Part shown: positions 8,069 through 18,840 of the stretch, piece after piece
How positions within the stretch are numbered: the first letter of the stretch is position 1
Layout: each line of letters starts with the position of its first letter
Virus record (IMG/VR): IMGVR_UViG_2645727635_000012
Direction: 5' to 3' (one strand)
DNA length: 21,521 nt
DNA from: a virus
Taxonomy: Duplodnaviria; Heunggongvirae; Uroviricota; Caudoviricetes
Translations under genes and position numbers: made by a program
Notes under the pieces: model-generated
Told to the model about the DNA's origin: nothing
Databases searched by the model: none
Seen by the model: only the letters and a program-made list of their open reading frames with translations

Positions 8069-8536
8069 TTAATCAAAAAGCCCCACCTGGGTGGGGCTTT
8101 TCAGCGAAGTCTGTTTTTGTCGTCGGTGTATCAGCTGCCATGCGTACCGGTCTGAAATGCCGTAACGGGGACAGAGCAGTGCCAGCGCCTGCCGGTGTGA
8201 GCATCCGTCTTTTACATGCTGCTGTAAATCAGCCATAAAACGGGTGTTACGCAGGGCACGTAACGCATGATCGCAACGGGGAATGTAAAACGGAGCACCG
8301 CCAAGAAAGCGGATCAGTTTGTTGATTTCGTCTTCGGTCAGCACGTCATGTAACAGGGCATGGACACCGCCGGTGCGTTCGGCGTGTACGCCGGTTTTAC
8401 CGCTTAACGTCACGCCACCAAAAGAACGAATCAACCGGGTCAGGGCGGGGAAGCCAATCACGCTAATCAGTTGCTGCACGGAATCGGGCAGCAGTGCCTG
8501 CGCATCGCGAAGATCTGTTTCACTGAAGGTCTGCAT
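8069..8536 (-). CDS. Mor/C-family transcriptional activator (middle or late gene activator)
   Basis: 155 aa; C-terminal region LGGAPFYIPR...RYGISDRYAWQLI matches the Mor/C family signature; GGAGA Shine-Dalgarno; sits between early region and lysis genes. Confidence 0.8.
   Translation of the reverse strand: MQTFSETDLRDAQALLPDSVQQLISVIGFPALTRLIRSFGGVTLSGKTGVHAERTGGVHALLHDVLTEDEINKLIRFLGGAPFYIPRCDHALRALRNTRFMADLQQHVKDGCSHRQALALLCPRYGISDRYAWQLIHRRQKQTSLKSPTQVGLFD
8075..8101 (-). terminator. Intrinsic terminator overlapping the last codons and stop of the Mor/C-family gene
   Basis: GC-rich stem AGCCCCAC / GTGGGGCT flanked by A-run and T-run; on the minus strand the hairpin is followed by UUUUUGAUUAA. 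Confidence 0.6.
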
Positions 8537-8559: not shown

Positions 8560-8595
8560 ACTGTTATTATAGTCATACATGATCGCCTGTACAGA
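8560..8595 (-). promoter_or_regulatory. Candidate activator-dependent promoter for the Mor/C-family gene
   Basis: Perfect TATAAT on the minus strand (plus 8566..8571) about 30 nt upstream of the start codon; poor -35 (CTGTAC), as in activator-dependent Mu middle/late promoters. Confidence 0.35.
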
Positions 8596-8597
8596 CC

Positions 8598-8625
8598 ACA
8601 AAAAAGCCCCTGCATGGCAGGGGCT
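8598..8625 (-). terminator. Intrinsic terminator downstream of the cargo gene
   Basis: Perfect 9-bp stem AGCCCCTGC-atg-GCAGGGGCT followed on the minus strand by a U6 run. Confidence 0.7.
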
Positions 8626-8635
8626 AAACTAAGTC

Positions 8636-9112
8636 TTATTTAGTCAGGTCTAGAATAACCAGGCCTTTTCTTGATTCTATTTGCTCTTTACCAAAAACAA
8701 ACGAATCAAAACAATCCATACGATATTCTTTAAACTGATTTCTTGAACGTTCCAGAAACTGCCTGTCATCCCTGATAACGTTAGACCAGTAATCCTGTAG
8801 CTGGTTTTTCATTTTTATGCAGGAACCATACACAGGATCAAGCGGGTCGTCCCCCAGTTTACTGGCCTGTTCATCCAGTTGTTTTAGTCCTTTTTTGATA
8901 TTCTTCCACTCTTCAATATTTCCCTGCTGATACTGCGATGCAGCTTCTGGCATAGCGTAATAAAGTTTTCCACTTTCCCGAAGTATCTGTTCAGCCAATG
9001 GCTTCATATCCTGATAACGTTTCAGTTCCTTTTGCGCCTGTTCCTCTGTCTGTGCCAGCACAGAACAAGAGAAAATAACCCCTACTAAACAAAACAACCA
9101 TTTTTTCATCAT
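8636..9112 (-). CDS. Secreted or periplasmic protein of unknown function (cargo gene, lower GC than neighbours)
   Basis: 158 aa with N-terminal signal peptide MMKKWLFCLVGVIFSCSVLA; visibly AT-rich codon usage; start overlaps GemA stop (ATGA); followed by its own terminator. Confidence 0.7.
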   Translation of the reverse strand: MMKKWLFCLVGVIFSCSVLAQTEEQAQKELKRYQDMKPLAEQILRESGKLYYAMPEAASQYQQGNIEEWKNIKKGLKQLDEQASKLGDDPLDPVYGSCIKMKNQLQDYWSNVIRDDRQFLERSRNQFKEYRMDCFDSFVFGKEQIESRKGLVILDLTK

Positions 9113-9507
9113 TGATTTCTCCTTCTTGAATCTTTAACCAGCGCCACCATCACTCCAAAAAGCTGTTCATCCGTCAGCCATTCGATCACATGTTGCTTAT
9201 ACATGTGAGATGCCAGTCCTTCCGCATACGCCCAGGAACGACCGGCATCAGCCAGTAACGCTTCAATTTTGGATAATACCGATTTTCTGCTCATTGCAAC
9301 ACGAGGGCGGCGACCTTTACCGGCGGGGGCCTTGCGCGGAAATCCCTGTTCATGCATGTATTCCCGGATGATGCGCAGTTCATCGAGATTGCAGCGTGTG
9401 GTGCTGGTTTTACCGGTCAGACGGGCCAGCGTCTGGCGATAAAGGGCATCATCCCACCCCAGATACGCCTGACCGGCTTTAATGGCCCCGATCATCTTTT
9501 TCAGCAT
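9109..9507 (-). CDS. gemA: GemA-like protein (Mu gp16 family, DUF1018)
   Basis: Start trimmed to the internal ATG with GAGGAT Shine-Dalgarno; motif GWDDALYRQTL...GKTS...LDEL...GF matches the gp16/GemA pattern; lies upstream of the Mor/C gene as in Mu. Confidence 0.75.
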   Translation of the reverse strand: MLKKMIGAIKAGQAYLGWDDALYRQTLARLTGKTSTTRCNLDELRIIREYMHEQGFPRKAPAGKGRRPRVAMSRKSVLSKIEALLADAGRSWAYAEGLASHMYKQHVIEWLTDEQLFGVMVALVKDSRRRNQ

Positions 9508-9757
9508 GTTTGTTATCCTCAAAACGCACGGTAAAACGTGAAACGCCAATTCCTGACAGGAACGCAGCGGCACGATCAAGAGACAGCCACGTCTTGTAAT
9601 CGCCACGGCGTTCCTGTAGAAAATAGGACACCCCGGCGCGGCGATTCACAGCGAAGAGGTGATACACACCACCGAACCGCTGCACGACGAACTCATCCAC
9701 GCCACCGCTTTCAGCCTGTTGCCTGAAAGCTGCCATTCCGACTTGTTCAATCTTCAT
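9479..9757 (-). CDS. Hypothetical protein (about 92 aa)
   Basis: ORF trimmed to the internal ATG at 9757; the alternative upstream ATG lies in the centre of the palindrome; overlaps GemA start. Confidence 0.5.
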   Translation of the reverse strand: MKIEQVGMAAFRQQAESGGVDEFVVQRFGGVYHLFAVNRRAGVSYFLQERRGDYKTWLSLDRAAAFLSGIGVSRFTVRFEDNKHAEKDDRGH

Positions 9758-9760
9758 AAT

Positions 9761-9806
9761 GACCAAAACACTACTTTTGGCAGACCAAAACATATGTTTT
9801 GGTCTG
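9761..9806. promoter_or_regulatory. Perfect 26-bp palindrome CAGACCAAAACATATGTTTTGGTCTG (9781..9806) plus an extra GACCAAAAC half-site (9761..9769); candidate operator
   Basis: Read directly from sequence; located between the small basic-protein genes and the 92-aa gene. Confidence 0.5.
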
Positions 9807-9824
9807 CTATTGGTTATTATTTAA

Positions 9825-10007
9825 TCACTTTGCGTTAGTGTGATTCTTCCAGCGGTTTTGCGCCGCACTGGGCTTTTTGCAACAACTGTGCCCCATCACC
9901 CCGCAACACCCTGTCAACCTCACTCGTCTGTTACTAATCCTCAACCATCGCCAGACCCCAACACCGTTTCTTCGAGCTAACAGAATCTTTGCTTTACGGT
10001 TTTTCAT
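9825..10007 (-). CDS. Small basic Cys-rich protein (60 aa; CCGVMGHSCC)
   Basis: ATG overlaps the stop of the upstream 57-aa ORF (ATGA); very basic composition. Confidence 0.4.
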   Translation of the reverse strand: MKNRKAKILLARRNGVGVWRWLRISNRRVRLTGCCGVMGHSCCKKPSAAQNRWKNHTNAK

Positions 10008-10177
10008 CGTTTTGCTCTCCTGCGTTTCTTTGCTTCGCGTCGTGCAGCTGCAATACCGGTATGGCGCTTTGGTGCCGGGATGATGCTGTCAGCCATCAGG
10101 GCATGTGGCTTTGCAATTAGCGCAGAAGCCCAAAAACGAGTCGGGTATGGTAATAAACCGATAAACGCTACACGCAT
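10004..10177 (-). CDS. Unannotated 57-aa protein: hydrophobic N-terminal half, poly-basic tail (RREAKKRRRAKR)
   Basis: Not in the ORF track (under 60 aa); strong AAGGAGG Shine-Dalgarno 5-6 nt upstream; ATG overlaps stop of the 165-aa gene (TAATG); manual translation. Confidence 0.45.
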   Translation of the reverse strand: MRVAFIGLLPYPTRFWASALIAKPHALMADSIIPAPKRHTGIAAARREAKKRRRAKR

Positions 10178-10674
10178 TACGCACCTCCTTTGGCGTCAAT
10201 ATTTACAGCCTGGCAAGCCTCGTTGAGTACCCAGTCAACCGCGTCTTTCCATGCTCCGGTTTCGACTGGCGGATTCTCACACTTTACCTGTTCATAGAAA
10301 CGCACTGCTTTAACTAGTCCTTCCGGCACTACCGACGCTGGCGGGGCAGCATAAAGCTCATGCATTCCATCAGGTAGCGAGTGACCTACATACTCACTGA
10401 ACCCATCAACACACATGCATCCATCTTCAACAATGCATGACGCTACTGGCAAAGCCACCTCCCGTGCCTCCAGTTCTTCTGCCCACTCCCGAAGCCCTTC
10501 AATCTCACCATTACGAGCTATCAGATCGCGACACAGTCTTTCGTTTTCATCCAGCAACGCCTGCACAACCTCCGGCGTAGCCGCAGCATGAAAAGCCTGT
10601 AGGTTCTGCCACGTCGTATCCCCCTTCGCGGCCTCTGTCACCTCACGCAGTGCCTGATAGTTAATCTCGCTCAC
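10177..10674 (-). CDS. Hypothetical protein, possibly ead/Ea22-like family (165 aa)
   Basis: N-terminus MSEINYQALREV...PEVVQALLDENERL resembles the ead/Ea22-like family from memory; Cys-rich middle; overlaps upstream gene. Confidence 0.5.
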   Translation of the reverse strand: MSEINYQALREVTEAAKGDTTWQNLQAFHAAATPEVVQALLDENERLCRDLIARNGEIEGLREWAEELEAREVALPVASCIVEDGCMCVDGFSEYVGHSLPDGMHELYAAPPASVVPEGLVKAVRFYEQVKCENPPVETGAWKDAVDWVLNEACQAVNIDAKGGA

Positions 10675-14521: not shown

Positions 14522-15415
14522 TCAGTGAATTAACATTTCTGAATATTTATCAATGGCCTGCACACTGACCGGTGCATCGCTGATATCACAAATCCGGTAC
14601 ACACCGCGCGCCAGCTTGAACAGACGACGGGCATTGCCCAGCGAACGTGTGTAAAGTGCCTCACCAATTTCCGGGTCTGCCGCTTCCGGCATCATGTCTG
14701 TGGCAATCTTGTTAAAATCTTCCTGCGTCAGCGTATCGCCCAGGTTAAGCGCCAGCGCCACGCGGCTGTATAATTGAGCGAACTCACCACAACGGCCCTT
14801 AAGGTTAATCAGAAGGTGAGGCATACCCGCCAGGACAATCCCGATACCCGCTTTGTCATGCAGACGGCGCAATACCTCCAGTGCACGATAGGGAAGCAGT
14901 TCAGCCTCATCCACCATCAGCAGACGACCTGACCCACGCAGTTCACGCACACAGGCATCAATCTTCTCGCGAATATCGCCGTGAACCTTTATACCCAGCT
15001 GACGGCACAGTTCATCGAGTAACTTTCTGGCCGTATAGCCAATATCGGCTTCAATGAGCACTACATCCCGGTTTCTGGCAGCATACTCACTCAGAATCAT
15101 GCTTTTACCCAGACCCGCCGCGCCATACAGCACGCAAATATCACACTCCAGATGGGCGTAGGTCAGCACCTCCAGCCCTTTGGCGGCCATGCCGGTGGTG
15201 ACAAATCGCACTTTAATACGGCGGTTGTTTTCCTTTTCCCATTCACGGGTCACAAAGGCAGAAATGCGTTCTTCAATATCAGCCATATCGCCCTGATATT
15301 TACCCTGCAAATACTGGTTAATAACGGCGCTGCTACGACCAATAGCACGGGCAACGTGGGTCTGCGTAAAGCCGCGACGGGCCATTACGTCATTTAATTG
15401 CGTAATTAAACTCAT
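14522..15415 (-). CDS. B: DNA transposition ATPase B (MuB-like, AAA+)
   Basis: 297 aa; N-terminal helix-turn-helix-like region; Walker A LYGAAGLGKS; directly downstream of the transposase. Confidence 0.9.
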   Translation of the reverse strand: MSLITQLNDVMARRGFTQTHVARAIGRSSAVINQYLQGKYQGDMADIEERISAFVTREWEKENNRRIKVRFVTTGMAAKGLEVLTYAHLECDICVLYGAAGLGKSMILSEYAARNRDVVLIEADIGYTARKLLDELCRQLGIKVHGDIREKIDACVRELRGSGRLLMVDEAELLPYRALEVLRRLHDKAGIGIVLAGMPHLLINLKGRCGEFAQLYSRVALALNLGDTLTQEDFNKIATDMMPEAADPEIGEALYTRSLGNARRLFKLARGVYRICDISDAPVSVQAIDKYSEMLIH

Positions 15416-15433: not shown

Positions 15434-17476
15434 TTAACGATTATTTGTGCCGTTTTTCTTTAAATTGCGCTCACGGTCAGACACGAATAAATAAAGTTCT
15501 TCTTTTTCCTTTTTCTCCTGGCGTTCCAGTCCATATCCCAGATTAAAGTCAGGCTTCTGCGTAATAGCCGGGGTAAGCTCGCGTTTAGCCTCTTCGATTT
15601 TCTGCGTGGCCCGTGCAATGCGGCCTCTGGCGCGTTTCTCCTGCTGCTGTTCGATAACAGCTTTCGGGAACGCATCAACCTTATTACCGTTCCAGATGGC
15701 ATCGCAGATATAAGAACCGTCCATCCGCCTGACAATCACGCTGTTTGCGTCGTGAATGTCGTAACAAACCCTGACTTCATTTCCATGCTCTGCTGCCAGT
15801 TCTGTGGAGAAATAGATGTTTCTGAATAACACCACTTCACCGCGTCGCACTGTGCAGATGCTTTCCGGTCGGAACATTTCGTGAAGTTCTTCCGGCGACA
15901 GCATGTCAATTTCAGTCTTCTGCTCTTTTATCAGTTTCCGGCGATACGCTGCCGGGCTGTAATGTTCGCCATCCTCTTTGCGGGGAAGGCTGCTGTGTGG
16001 CCGGTTGTTATACCGTTTCACCTCCAGCTCTATTGCGGCCAGCAGTTGCTCAAAGGTGGGGACTTCTCCCATCGCTTTAACCTGCCGTTTTGTCAGCTCT
16101 TTCCCTTTGTGGGTGGCCTTAATGGCTGACTGTGTGATGCGTTGCTGCATCATCACCGTTTCCTTGTCTGCATTTTTTGAGCAGTACGTCTGGAAACTCA
16201 GAGCCACATCTTTGGGTATTCCTTTGTTTGCTCGTTCTATTACCCCGCGCCCCTGCGGGTTACCAGGTATCCCCGTGTGATGCTCCACACCCAGCCGGGG
16301 CAGAATCCCGGTAATATCGGCATCAAGTACCTGGTTTTTTTCACCGCCCCCGTTATCGGAGTAATAAATCAGCGGTATTCCGTGTTGTGACATGCCATGA
16401 CGCAATGCATCAGCGACGGCCACCACGTTCTCCGACAGGGACAGCGACCAGCCCACAATAAAGCGTTGCCCAGCATCCATAACCAGCGTCACTTCTGGCC
16501 GGAATGTATTCCCGGTGGCAGGGTTGAATGCCATCAGTTTCATACAGTGACCATCCCCGACCCATACCGCATTAACCGGTAATGTGCTCCAGTCGCGCCG
16601 CACAAAGGGATTGAGCGAACGCCAGGCTGAACCCGTGGAGCGGAAACGCTCTTTAACAATCACCGGGACGCTGCTTAACACCCGTCTTACTGCGTGAACT
16701 GAAGGCAGTGCCGCCAGCATTCCCGCATCGTTCGCGTGTTTTTCATGCCACCAGGCTGAAAACTCACGATACGCATATTCAACGGTCGGGCGCTTCCATG
16801 AGCGATAGAACATAAAGAAATCGCTCAACCACCAGACCTGCTCCCACGGTGTTCCCTTATGATGACCGGGAGCCAGTAACGCCAGTAACTGATTGGCATC
16901 ACCGCGCGCCATCACCCAGCTGGAGTACCAGCTATCCAGGCTGCCGGTGCTGACACCGGTTCGCTTTCCCTGACGTGCATTTGCAGTATTAGCTGCTTCG
17001 ATAATGCGGTCAGGTAACGCCCCCATGCGCACACCATCAACGATGTGCTTTAACGCGGCCTTCCTGGTCATTCCGGCGTATTCGCGCAGTTTATGCACTT
17101 CAGTAGCCAGCAATATCCGCGCATCAGCGATGGCCTTTTGCTTGTCAGTCAGTGCCTGGACTTCGCGTAATGCCAGTTCCGGGCATTTGACCATCACCTC
17201 CAGTTCATCGCGAACGGCGACGTTTTTAACTGCCTTCTGCTCAACCACGGCGGGCAGTTGCGTATCTTCCAGGACCTGATGGGTCAGGCGCTTACGTAAA
17301 ACTTTCTGCGCTTCAGCGGGCAGGCAGTCGATGTGATACTCGAATGCTTTGGTGCCTTCACGCTTGCGCTTCCATTCCGGGTGCGTCTCTGTGATCCGAT
17401 TGAGCGTCCAGCGCACCCCCTGAACTGTACCGGGCAAACCAGGAAGACCGGCCAGCTCATTGGCTGAATAAAACAT
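15434..17476 (-). CDS. A: DDE transposase A (MuA-like)
   Basis: 680 aa, between ner and B; size and synteny match MuA; start overlaps ner stop (TAATG). Confidence 0.9.
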   Translation of the reverse strand: MFYSANELAGLPGLPGTVQGVRWTLNRITETHPEWKRKREGTKAFEYHIDCLPAEAQKVLRKRLTHQVLEDTQLPAVVEQKAVKNVAVRDELEVMVKCPELALREVQALTDKQKAIADARILLATEVHKLREYAGMTRKAALKHIVDGVRMGALPDRIIEAANTANARQGKRTGVSTGSLDSWYSSWVMARGDANQLLALLAPGHHKGTPWEQVWWLSDFFMFYRSWKRPTVEYAYREFSAWWHEKHANDAGMLAALPSVHAVRRVLSSVPVIVKERFRSTGSAWRSLNPFVRRDWSTLPVNAVWVGDGHCMKLMAFNPATGNTFRPEVTLVMDAGQRFIVGWSLSLSENVVAVADALRHGMSQHGIPLIYYSDNGGGEKNQVLDADITGILPRLGVEHHTGIPGNPQGRGVIERANKGIPKDVALSFQTYCSKNADKETVMMQQRITQSAIKATHKGKELTKRQVKAMGEVPTFEQLLAAIELEVKRYNNRPHSSLPRKEDGEHYSPAAYRRKLIKEQKTEIDMLSPEELHEMFRPESICTVRRGEVVLFRNIYFSTELAAEHGNEVRVCYDIHDANSVIVRRMDGSYICDAIWNGNKVDAFPKAVIEQQQEKRARGRIARATQKIEEAKRELTPAITQKPDFNLGYGLERQEKKEKEELYLFVSDRERNLKKNGTNNR

Positions 17477-17712
17477 TACGCCGCCTTACTGGCATACCGG
17501 CTTGGCCAGATCTCCGCAGGTTCCACACCAATAGCATCGGCTATGATGCGTTCATATTTAGGGCATGAGCGATACAGTGCATTTTTTAAAGAGTCTTTTT
17601 TTAGACCAGCGCGTTCAGAAAGTTCACGCAATGTAAAACCTTTGGTGTGCACAGCGGCAACGATGTACTCGCGGTGCCAGTCTTTGTTCATTACTTCATT
17701 TCTAACCATCAT
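17476..17712 (-). CDS. ner: Ner-like DNA-binding regulator
   Basis: Contains DWHR...IWPSRY, matching Mu Ner; start trimmed to ATG with AAGGG Shine-Dalgarno; divergent from the repressor gene. Confidence 0.85.
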   Translation of the reverse strand: MMVRNEVMNKDWHREYIVAAVHTKGFTLRELSERAGLKKDSLKNALYRSCPKYERIIADAIGVEPAEIWPSRYASKAA

Positions 17713-17728
17713 TAGGTTACCCTTAAAA

Positions 17729-17771
17729 GTTATCCGTGCGGATAACACCGCCGTGTTATCCCTTCGGATAT
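17729..17771. promoter_or_regulatory. Candidate operators in the ner/c divergent region: GTTATCCG-tg-CGGATAAC (17729..17746) and imperfect TTATCC-cttc-GGATAT (17756..17771)
   Basis: Inverted repeats sharing the GTTATCC half-site, in the ner 5' leader; another inverted repeat CTTTCTTT...AAAGAAAG lies about 50 bp upstream of the repressor start. Confidence 0.5.
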
Positions 17772-17880
17772 AAGTATTGATCTACAAATAGAAAATTACA
17801 AGCTTTCTTTTCTTTCTTTGATGAAAAGAAAGTCTTTTTGTAGAAATACATTGTAAATCAATATATTGCGAGGAAAGAAA

Positions 17881-18528
17881 ATGAGTAAACAAACCGCCGA
17901 TGATTTTTCCTTTTCTCAGAATAGAAAAGAAAGCATTCAGGACAGAATCAAGCAACTGGTTGGCACTAGGAGTCTGCGTAAAGCCACCTCAGACTGGGGG
18001 TTGCCGTACTCGACCATAAATAACTACTTTGAGAAAGGCACCACTCCCGGCCTAAATGTGGTCGCTACGATAGCAAAATTAGAGAATGTATCACTGGAAT
18101 GGTTGGTCTACGGTGAGAGCAGGCATGATCCAATAATAGAAAAAAAGGTGCCTACAGAAGACGTTAACCGCCCAAACACAAGTATTGTCGATGAAATACT
18201 AAGGCGAGCTACTCCAGAAGATAGAGAGCGTCTTATTGATATGCTGTGTTGTATTGGCATCAAAGGAGTCCTGGAACGCCTACAGCAACCCACCAGGCAA
18301 ACCAAGCAAGCCGATAGCGAACTTGAGGAACAAAGGAAGGCCATTCAAAGCCTGAACATCAGGCAATCGCTTAAAGACGCTGTTTGCATGGCATTAGCTG
18401 GCGATGAGGAAAATGACAAAGAGATTTTGCGCCGCGCCAAAGCTATTTTCTGTGCTGGAACACCAGGTGATCGCGTTCCCGTCACACCGGAGCAAGAAAC
18501 TAAGCCTGTAAACAAGAAATCAGCATAA
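17881..18528 (+). CDS. Prophage repressor (Mu c-like position; CI-type helix-turn-helix N-terminus, no peptidase domain)
   Basis: Start trimmed to ATG with AGGAAAG Shine-Dalgarno; N-terminus ...GLPYSTINNYFEKGTTPGLNVVATIAKLENVSLEWLVYGE resembles phage CI-type DNA-binding domains; divergent from ner. Confidence 0.65.
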   Translation: MSKQTADDFSFSQNRKESIQDRIKQLVGTRSLRKATSDWGLPYSTINNYFEKGTTPGLNVVATIAKLENVSLEWLVYGESRHDPIIEKKVPTEDVNRPNTSIVDEILRRATPEDRERLIDMLCCIGIKGVLERLQQPTRQTKQADSELEEQRKAIQSLNIRQSLKDAVCMALAGDEENDKEILRRAKAIFCAGTPGDRVPVTPEQETKPVNKKSA

Positions 18529-18689
18529 GCGCCTCGTTTTGGCGGGGCGTGTGCTGTTAGCTAATCAGCAATAACCACAACAAAACCGAACACACAGATG
18601 AGAACAAATTGAGGAAAACGGGTAAGGATAAAACACTTTTTTAAAAGCATTTAAAACCCGTTAAGTTTGTAGCAGAACCAGATCAAAAG

Positions 18690-18840
18690 CGCCCAGAAAA
18701 AAGCGCAAAAAAAAGCGTTTTTGGTCATTTCTCACAAATCCGCCCAGAATCACACTAAATCACCACACCCCGCGCCACACAAGGCTTGCTGGTTCTACCA
18801 GGCTGCACTAACTCCGCCCAGAATTGATCACTACCCCACA
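18690..18840. repeat. Candidate Mu-like left end: three same-orientation CGCCCAGAA repeats (18690, 18741, 18815) and putative terminus ...CCCCACA at about 18840
   Basis: Repeats read from sequence; in phage orientation the end reads 5'-TGTGGGGTAGTGATCAATTCTGGGCGG, beginning TG like Mu ends; boundary is inferred. Confidence 0.35.

Follow-up and report, generated by a model that had tools for sequence, protein, structure and literature searches.

Two copies of one 18-bp inverted repeat, CCAAAA-N6-TTTTGG, lie immediately before the start codon of a gene for a 92-amino-acid (92-aa) protein in the virus record IMGVR_UViG_2645727635_000012 (Caudoviricetes; 21,521 nucleotides (nt), here called the window, with positions counted from its first letter), and together form a cis-element that is genuine and under selection, had not been annotated before and belongs to a familiar kind. 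The early operon of this Mu-like prophage, which the window represents, runs on the minus strand, and the pair of repeats, dyad 1 and dyad 2, falls within it. The pair is best explained as a tandem operator to which a dimeric protein with sequence specificity for DNA would bind; such binding is predicted from the way the sequence has been conserved, and we give this explanation about an even chance of being correct.

Dyad 1 (CCAAAA-CATATG-TTTTGG, 9785-9802) is distal from the start codon in gene orientation and forms the core of the perfect palindrome CAGACCAAAACATATGTTTTGGTCTG (9781-9806), which measures 26 bp, or 28 bp with the flanking g9780 and c9807, and in whose stem a terminator scan counts 14 pairs. 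Dyad 2 (CCAAAA-CACTAC-TTTTGG on the plus strand, 9763-9780) is proximal, with 5 nt between its end and the start codon of the 92-aa gene; the two are separated by 4 nt and repeat at 22 bp from start to start. Together they occupy the 67-nt gap (9758-9824) between the 92-aa gene and an upstream open reading frame (ORF) of 60 aa, and the upstream 17-18 nt of this gap (9807-9824) are A+T-rich and only semi-conserved (nucleotide diversity pi = 0.27 over the upstream 17 nt). An earlier reading made from the sequence alone had described a perfect 26-bp palindrome with a third half-site, located between a pair of small basic-protein genes and the 92-aa gene. A check of the sequence confirms both the palindrome and its location, and GACCAAAAC does occur exactly three times in the window, always at this site (9761, 9783 and, on the opposite strand, 9796); the additional copy is, however, not an orphan half-site but the left arm of the complete dyad 2. 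By our own arithmetic (21521/4^13), chance alone would give about 3e-4 perfect palindromes of 26 bp in the window. Allowing up to one mismatch, CCAAAA-N6-TTTTGG matches only these two sites in 21.5 kb, where shuffles lead one to expect 0.16, and two matches were reached in 2 of 100 shuffles; the looser patterns CCAA-N10-TTGG and CCA-N12-TGG (the latter with A/T inner arms) find no other site in the window. The further dyads for which the sequence-only reading had suggested a search are thus absent here, and also from one complete related prophage, where the motif is confined to a single locus.

The ATG present on each strand of the central CATATG, to which the same reading had drawn attention, is real; it has no bearing on the element, because relatives carry AGTATT, CATGTT or CATACG at this place. 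Public gene callers start the 92-aa protein at the ATG of the palindrome centre (window 9479-9793), yielding 104-aa forms (for example P0001 and P0002), and a start at 9757 is likely because the 12-residue extension is not conserved where the palindrome centre differs. On the minus strand, window 9754-9771 also holds a possible 5-codon mini-ORF, (G/A)TG TTT TGG TCA TTA TGA (M/V-F-W-S-L), which would open within the dyad 2 spacer and close with a TGA that shares bases with the start codon of the 92-aa gene (ATGA); all six E. coli-type variants of this spacer end in RTG, and the mini-ORF is absent from other lineages.

Selection on the element follows its dyad architecture closely. Among 22 distinct E. 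coli-type haplotypes compared by site class, not one of the 24 arm sites is variable (pi 0), against 9 of the 12 spacer sites (pi 0.19; 5 of 6 in dyad 1 and 4 of 6 in dyad 2) and 50 of the 93 third codon positions in the adjacent gene (pi 0.10); the arms are thus under strong purifying selection and the spacers roughly neutral. At the third-codon rate, the probability of finding all 24 arm sites invariant is about 1e-8 (own arithmetic). The half-site consensus, built from 28 half-sites in seven lineage representatives, is R-C-C-A-W-W-n; the C-A of its CCA core is invariant, the first C is found in 25 of 28, and the inner positions are A or T. What is kept is base identity at a fixed spacing, not merely the ability to pair. 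The CAGA/TCTG flanks that extend dyad 1 are nearly invariant in the E. coli type and not conserved elsewhere, and the extended palindrome of 26-28 bp is an elaboration specific to that type; in relatives, the right arm of dyad 2 is often degenerate (GAATGG, GATTGG), overlapping a GGA Shine-Dalgarno-like sequence. Inverted half-sites at fixed spacing, with conserved arms around a free spacer, are what an operator for a dimeric protein should display, and all of these are present.

The same layout is found well beyond the E. coli type. Related loci were retrieved via the 92-aa protein and not via the motif, so that the test of conservation is not circular. In all members of the 92-aa family down to about 57% identity, the order is N4-6-N6-6-N4-6-N6-6 (with 6-nt arms), followed by 2-10 nt to the ATG, and this twin-dyad layout recurs at fixed spacing in about 11 lineages: the E. 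coli type, Intestinirhabdus alba (L004), Leminorella grimontii (L055), two Erwinia psidii prophages (L176, L178) and the metagenomic lineages L022/L023, L057, L058, L059 and L179. The motif is therefore found at the orthologous position in related prophages, on which the sequence-only reading had staked its proposal. Two of these lineages, L059 and L179, are not typical Mu-likes: their 92-aa-family gene is followed by terminase genes, and neither gemA nor mor is found within the 3 kb fetched on each side. Because they nevertheless keep the dyads, the dyads travel with the 92-aa gene and not with gemA or mor, and this gene is their only constant neighbour among Mu-like and related prophages.

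The 92-aa protein occurs in none of the isolated phages in the collection; phage Mu lacks these dyads and has a G+C-rich hairpin before gemA instead. Of 5426 complete E. coli genomes, 51 (about 1%) contain the element together with the beginning of the 92-aa gene. When all viral contigs were scanned for the tandem pattern, 22 matched, of which 20 are this prophage family, one is lambdoid (L030) and one is an unrelated iteron array (L035); a scan for the single dyad ACCAAAA-N6-TTTTGGT gave more than 100 mostly A+T-rich environmental contigs, which have no common context and are uninformative.

Recognition of the motif itself, most simply as duplex DNA by a dimer, is favoured over an RNA structure because the arms show no covariation, the stability of the RNA is not conserved and Rfam contains no convincing match. 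The pairing test covered 22 distinct 46-nt cores with 500 column shuffles: the two hairpins pair in 86% of cells, which 121 of the 500 shuffles match, and the arms show no covariation, the observed score being reached in 311 of 500. In the ATG-proximal hairpin (dyad 2), the inner three pairs are broken in 7-10 of the 22 sequences. Of ten lineages whose RNA was folded over 76-78 nt around the site, the E. coli type alone gives a significant structure (z = -5.05); z-scores in the remaining nine lie between -1.3 and +0.7, and their minimum-energy shapes differ. An Rfam scan of 9500-10100 returned as its sole match a plastid 3' untranslated region model, which reached 19.8 bits where the gathering score is 55.8.

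These results bear first on the possibility that the element controls translation of the 92-aa gene at the RNA level, by alternative arm pairings that hide or free the ribosome-binding region. The pairings L1:R1 and L2:R2 would together hide a weak ribosome-binding region in R2, and R1:L2 would free it; the form adopted would depend on ribosomes that complete the upstream ORF or on a protein, perhaps the 92-aa protein regulating its own mRNA, after the model of ermC-type translational attenuation or of autogenous translational operators. The location suits such a role, as the element always lies 2-10 nt from the ATG, its last arm overlaps Shine-Dalgarno-like bases, and the upstream ORF crosses dyad 1 and stops within dyad 2 in four lineages (judged by eye). 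RNA of the E. coli type folds very stably (z = -4.7 to -5.05) and alternative foldings close in energy exist, but nine of the ten lineages have neither significant stability nor a common fold; the R1:L2 helix stands slightly above shuffles (15/500) and a few E. coli-type stem changes yield G-U pairs in the sense RNA, but the two hairpins do not covary and the second is broken in its inner pairs, as described above. The model of the 92-aa protein resembles small RNA-binding proteins, for example eL38 and SRP9/14; conserved stems with free loops are, however, the reverse of what is seen in most RNA-protein hairpin sites, Rfam offers no convincing match, and a lambdoid copy of the element, described below, has no downstream gene to regulate in that orientation. 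We consider translational control rather unlikely. With ermC-type attenuators the element shares four segments that pair either 1:2 and 3:4 or 2:3, the last of them covering the ribosome-binding region; it differs from them in having no covariation, no conserved RNA stability and no conserved leader peptide.

A plain RNA hairpin without a specific ligand, acting as a partial terminator, as a processing site for RNase III/E or as a 3'-end stabiliser, which would serve the upstream accessory-gene transcript, is in our judgement highly improbable. The 12-14-bp stem is stable (minimum free energy -23 kcal/mol for the 76-nt region), but only in the E. coli type; a terminator-like structure is called (stem 9778-9809, then TTGGTTATTA), but on the plus strand only, where no evident gene was seen; and an element kept for its structure should show compensatory changes, whereas here the sequence of the arms is frozen. 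An intrinsic terminator of the operon was rejected, because on the minus (coding) strand the hairpin is followed by CCAAAAGUAGUG and not by a U-tract, and the structure is not conserved in relatives; this bears out the earlier judgement that a terminator is unlikely.

The element also marks a mosaic junction. At least five unrelated upstream modules join it about 20 nt before dyad 1. In the window, the 60-aa ORF belongs to a mosaic module common to lambdoid and P1-type phages, at the place of which relatives have unrelated genes; the module (9840-10192, comprising two small basic ORFs and the start of an Ea22-like gene) is 79-92% identical to phiV10, O157 typing, many Stx and P1-type phages, and this similarity ceases about 20 nt short of where the 60-aa ORF ends. 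The element could thus itself be a recombination or module-boundary site, that is, a crossover point, either site-specific or a short homology patch, at which cassettes are exchanged. This would explain why at least five modules abut the same element and why the homology of the lambdoid/P1-type module ends about 20-35 nt from the dyads, and invariant arms with free spacers also fit recombinase sites. The lambdoid element lies at a junction as well, with a Doc toxin-antitoxin cassette or hokD alternating and the 22-bp unit present once or twice. The 28-bp palindrome further has the 11-6-11 geometry of tyrosine-recombinase cores (dif, lox), but the extended palindrome exists only in the E. coli type; the prophage is of the Mu transposase type, with no integrase, resolvase or invertase among the genes scanned or seen annotated; and the distance to the downstream start codon is fixed, even where upstream genes are homologous between lineages. 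We consider a recombination site very unlikely. Compared by eye with the XerC/XerD arms of dif, the arms agree at 5-6 of 11 positions, a weak resemblance.

If the element is an operator, its two dyads of 18-20 bp, with the consensus A-CCA-w-w-N8-w-w-TGG-T, would each receive a dimer; because their period of 22 bp corresponds to about two helical turns, the two dimers could share one face of the helix and bind cooperatively. We infer from the conservation pattern a protein ligand, its binding to duplex DNA and a repressive effect. Located inside the minus-strand early operon and over the start of the ParC-like 92-aa gene that precedes gemA, the site would, when occupied, lower expression of the last early genes, namely the 92-aa gene, gemA and, where present, the gene for a 158-aa protein; as gemA follows immediately and overlaps the 92-aa gene, it should be co-regulated by anything that acts at the dyads. 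In the E. coli type, the bound protein would block read-through transcription from upstream; in at least one relative (L057), it would cover a local promoter.

The promoter-like sequences around the element differ among lineages. In the window, a weak sigma-70-like match, ATCACA-17-AATAAT (9816-9844, minus strand; 9/12 matches), would start transcription just before dyad 1 and lies in the upstream module that relatives replace; sites of this quality number 2 in the scanned region, against 3.3 expected. L057 has a terminator-like hairpin and, after it, TTAACC-16-TATATT; dyad 1 contains the -10 of this match, and dyad 2 sits at about +1. A -10 within one dyad and the other dyad at about +1 is a classical operator position. 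Because the promoter-like -10 of L057 lies inside dyad 1, the site may act as a promoter operator in some relatives, and as a roadblock within the operon in the E. coli type.

A different use of a promoter would be as an activator site, in which the Mor-family protein encoded at 8069-8536 binds the dyads and fires a promoter. In Mu, the site for Mor spans 16 bp, with 5-bp inverted repeats flanking a 6-bp spacer and its centre at -43.5 (PMC4390567), and the related geometry CAAAA-N6-TTTTG is found within each of the dyads; the C protein binds as two dimers (bioRxiv 10.1101/2025.05.02.651988), which the tandem arrangement would accommodate. An E. coli-type match, CTGCCA-16-CATTAT, places dyad 1 near -44, but such a promoter would start inside the 92-aa ORF and have its -35 covered by dyad 2; its CATTAT, the sole candidate -10, is poor, overlaps the ATG and exists only in the E. 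coli type, the other lineages having no -10 at the right distance. Nor does CCA-N12-TGG occur in the window in front of the Mor-family gene or the first late genes, and the dyads are present in L059 and L179, where the fetched flanks hold neither gemA nor mor, and missing from Mu itself. A Mor/C-type site is thus extremely improbable. The likeness to Mu Mor/C sites extends to short arms, a 6-bp spacer, possible adjacent dimers and a Mu-like genome in which a Mor-family gene is near; the differences are arms that are A+T-rich, a -10 misplaced in most lineages and the lack of copies before late genes.

The Mor-family gene appears to have a promoter of its own. On the minus strand, window 8566-8625 holds a strong terminator-like hairpin, AGCCCCTGCCATGCAGGGGCT, followed by TTTTTTG, and directly after this hairpin a near-consensus promoter, TGTACA-16-TATAAT, precedes the sole gene of the Mor/C family; by analogy with t9.2/Pm-C in Mu, the early operon seems to stop short of the activator gene. 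There is no second Mor/C-family member to activate this promoter, and the 158-aa ORF, considered as a Mor relative, proved unrelated to Mor.

Several observations weigh against the element being a tandem operator of this kind. Its end, 2-10 nt from the start codon and over the Shine-Dalgarno region, fits an RNA-level role as well; no promoter-like site stands at a constant position across lineages; and operator action in the E. coli type would call for a roadblock within an operon, a less usual arrangement. In another type of prophage, a homologue with 56% identity (L177) has a single related dyad without the tandem layout, and the Yersinia plasmid homologues (38-44% identity) do not have this layout either. 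Further, a search for the binder among neighbours and prophage candidates identified none. Repressor and Ner were rejected, as their own control region carries different dyads, of the type TTATCCG..CGGATAA, and transposase was rejected, as its end sites carry AAAAGCG-type repeats and not these dyads; the ten small early ORFs that were scanned contain no recognisable DNA-binding domain. The structural model of the 92-aa protein shows no helix-turn-helix, and its best fold matches, at modest scores, are RNA-binding proteins of the ribosome and signal recognition particle (SRP). Finally, a near-identical element in a rare lambdoid prophage without a 92-aa homologue argues against simple autoregulation.

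The operator proposed by the sequence-only reading therefore agrees with the conservation pattern, in that arms are invariant, spacing is fixed, covariation is absent and RNA stability is not conserved, but the regulators named for it find no support. For the Ner-like protein and the repressor, this follows from the different dyads of their own region; for the zinc-ribbon protein, it follows from the fact that zinc-ribbon-type upstream genes are interchangeable between relatives. In the intergenic region between repressor and Ner (17729-17770), two copies of such a dyad, GTTATCCGTGCGGATAAC and GTGTTATCCCTTCGGATA, lie 26 bp apart and overlap the start of the Ner-like gene, and further inverted repeats are found nearby (17775-17863), namely TCTACAAATAGA / TCTTTTTGTAGA and CTTTCTTTTC / GAAAAGAAAG; these are probably the immunity operators. 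The twin dyads are also not related in sequence to the end repeats or operator region of the prophage, as an end or enhancer site of a Mu transposase would be. Candidates for the binder are the 92-aa protein, which would then regulate its own gene, a different prophage protein and a host factor. We know of no host transcription-factor consensus that fits, a statement that is not a test; a full-text literature search for papers containing both hexamers returned nothing relevant.

The 92-aa protein (phrog_7844) has no Pfam family and no sequence match in the PDB; over nearly its full length, it weakly matches the NCBIfam model ParC, 'partition-associated protein' (E = 0.003, far below the cut-off). 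The plasmid function of ParC is unknown (PMC12421886). It is conceivable, although distinctly unlikely in our view, that the ParC-like gene and the dyads are two parts of one portable module, with the small alpha/beta protein itself as the sequence-specific ligand of CCA-N12-TGG, serving at the end of the early operon as a self-limiting gate that sets the level of GemA; in some relatives, the Mor-family activator also lies directly downstream. Were this so, it would provide the first function and the first DNA (or RNA) target for the ParC family, and the lambdoid copy would be a site at which one prophage acts on another in the same cell. In the Yersinia pseudotuberculosis plasmid p_153kb (L182, 2236-2752), a gene for a 91-aa Xre-type helix-turn-helix protein is overlapped at its end by a homologue of the 92-aa gene (38% protein identity), the two forming one unit; a short near-palindrome, CCAAAATATTTGG, is located inside the upstream gene, about 30 nt before the start of the homologue.

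The lambdoid copy lies in a nin-region contig (L030, 5942-5981) and reads GGAA-CCAAAA-GTGTTG-TTTTGG-CTTA-CCAAAA-CGATCG-TTTTGG-TAGC. In the E. coli version of this region (L060), which is 22 bp shorter, a single dyad unit (2706-2723) follows two hairpins that look terminator-like by eye (the scan called none) and precedes an antitoxin-Doc pair by about 110 nt. Neither L030 nor L060 has a 92-aa homologue in the DNA fetched, and an 87-aa ORF near the lambdoid copy, considered as a candidate, is not homologous to the 92-aa protein. This E. coli version occurs in only 6 of 5426 genomes, and none of the isolated phages in the collection carries the lambdoid version of the element. Other prophages have hokD at this site and a different sequence upstream of the same antitoxin, so the lambdoid dyad is not simply the operator of the antitoxin. 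Perfect arms in the absence of the 92-aa gene argue for a trans-acting factor other than the 92-aa protein, or for recent transfer.

The remaining match of the tandem scan (L035, 5914-6000), on an 85-kb viral contig of low G+C content, consists of four identical 22-bp units CAACCAAAAAGTGGGGTTTGGG (CCAAAAAGTGGGGTTTGG plus 4 nt) in a 6-6-6-4 layout, just upstream of a 442-aa ORF taken to be replication-initiator-like; it is probably an unrelated replication origin. The twin dyads share with iterons the 22-bp period of the unit, but have only two units, no replication gene nearby and a prophage of the transposable Mu type around them, where iterons form three or more direct repeats beside an initiator gene or origin. 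The suggestion of the sequence-only reading that the site might be iteron-like was accordingly dropped, the more so as the full-length related prophage contains no other copies.

The order of genes along the prophage is as follows. The CI-type repressor is encoded on the plus strand (17866-18528), beside the Ner-like gene (17476-17748); two large ORFs are read, from their position and from homologues in relatives, as the Mu-type transposase (15434-17476) and the transposase ATPase (14522-15415). A run of small accessory ORFs lies between the ATPase ORF and the Ea22-like gene (10177-10674), followed by a small basic ORF (10004-10177) and by the 60-aa ORF (9825-10007, minus strand), which is basic and rich in cysteine. 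After the gap with both dyads, also read on the minus strand, come the 92-aa gene (9479-9757, minus), the gemA homologue (9109-9510, minus; Pfam GemA, E = 1.5e-18), whose reading frame overlaps the end of the 92-aa gene, the 158-aa ORF (8636-9112) and, about 1.2 kb downstream of the dyads, the Mor-family gene. The left end of the prophage probably lies at 18660-18785, a region that reads TGTGTGGCGCGGGG... in reverse orientation and contains repeated AAAAGCG(C) motifs resembling transposase binding sites.

In the early operon of one clade of Mu-like prophages from E. coli and other Enterobacterales, the element thus marks a control point that had not been annotated, placed just before gemA, with the Mor-family gene 1.2 kb further on, behind its own terminator-like hairpin and promoter-like site. 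Its value is that of a well-supported lead and not of a new kind of element: being short, sharply defined and under selection, the site offers a convenient bait with which to identify the regulator by DNA pull-down, and could yield the first function for the ParC-like 92-aa family.

Among known systems, type II toxin-antitoxin operators and Aca-controlled anti-CRISPR promoters likewise place inverted repeats directly upstream of a small phage gene, with which they are portable, and the order of terminator, promoter, dyads and gene in L057 is the same as theirs; the module described here differs in having no helix-turn-helix partner, and its distant plasmid homologues, which do follow an Xre-type gene, lack these dyads. 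The operators of lambda (OR1-OR2), P22 and 434 differ from it in their setting, since the twin dyads lie outside the immunity region, are not between divergent promoters, have no conserved promoter and are unrelated in sequence to the repressor/Ner region of their own prophage. In their build the two are alike: in these operators, as here, two dyad sites of 14-18 bp stand about two helical turns apart, with conserved half-sites around a free central spacer, an arrangement suited to dimers that bind cooperatively.

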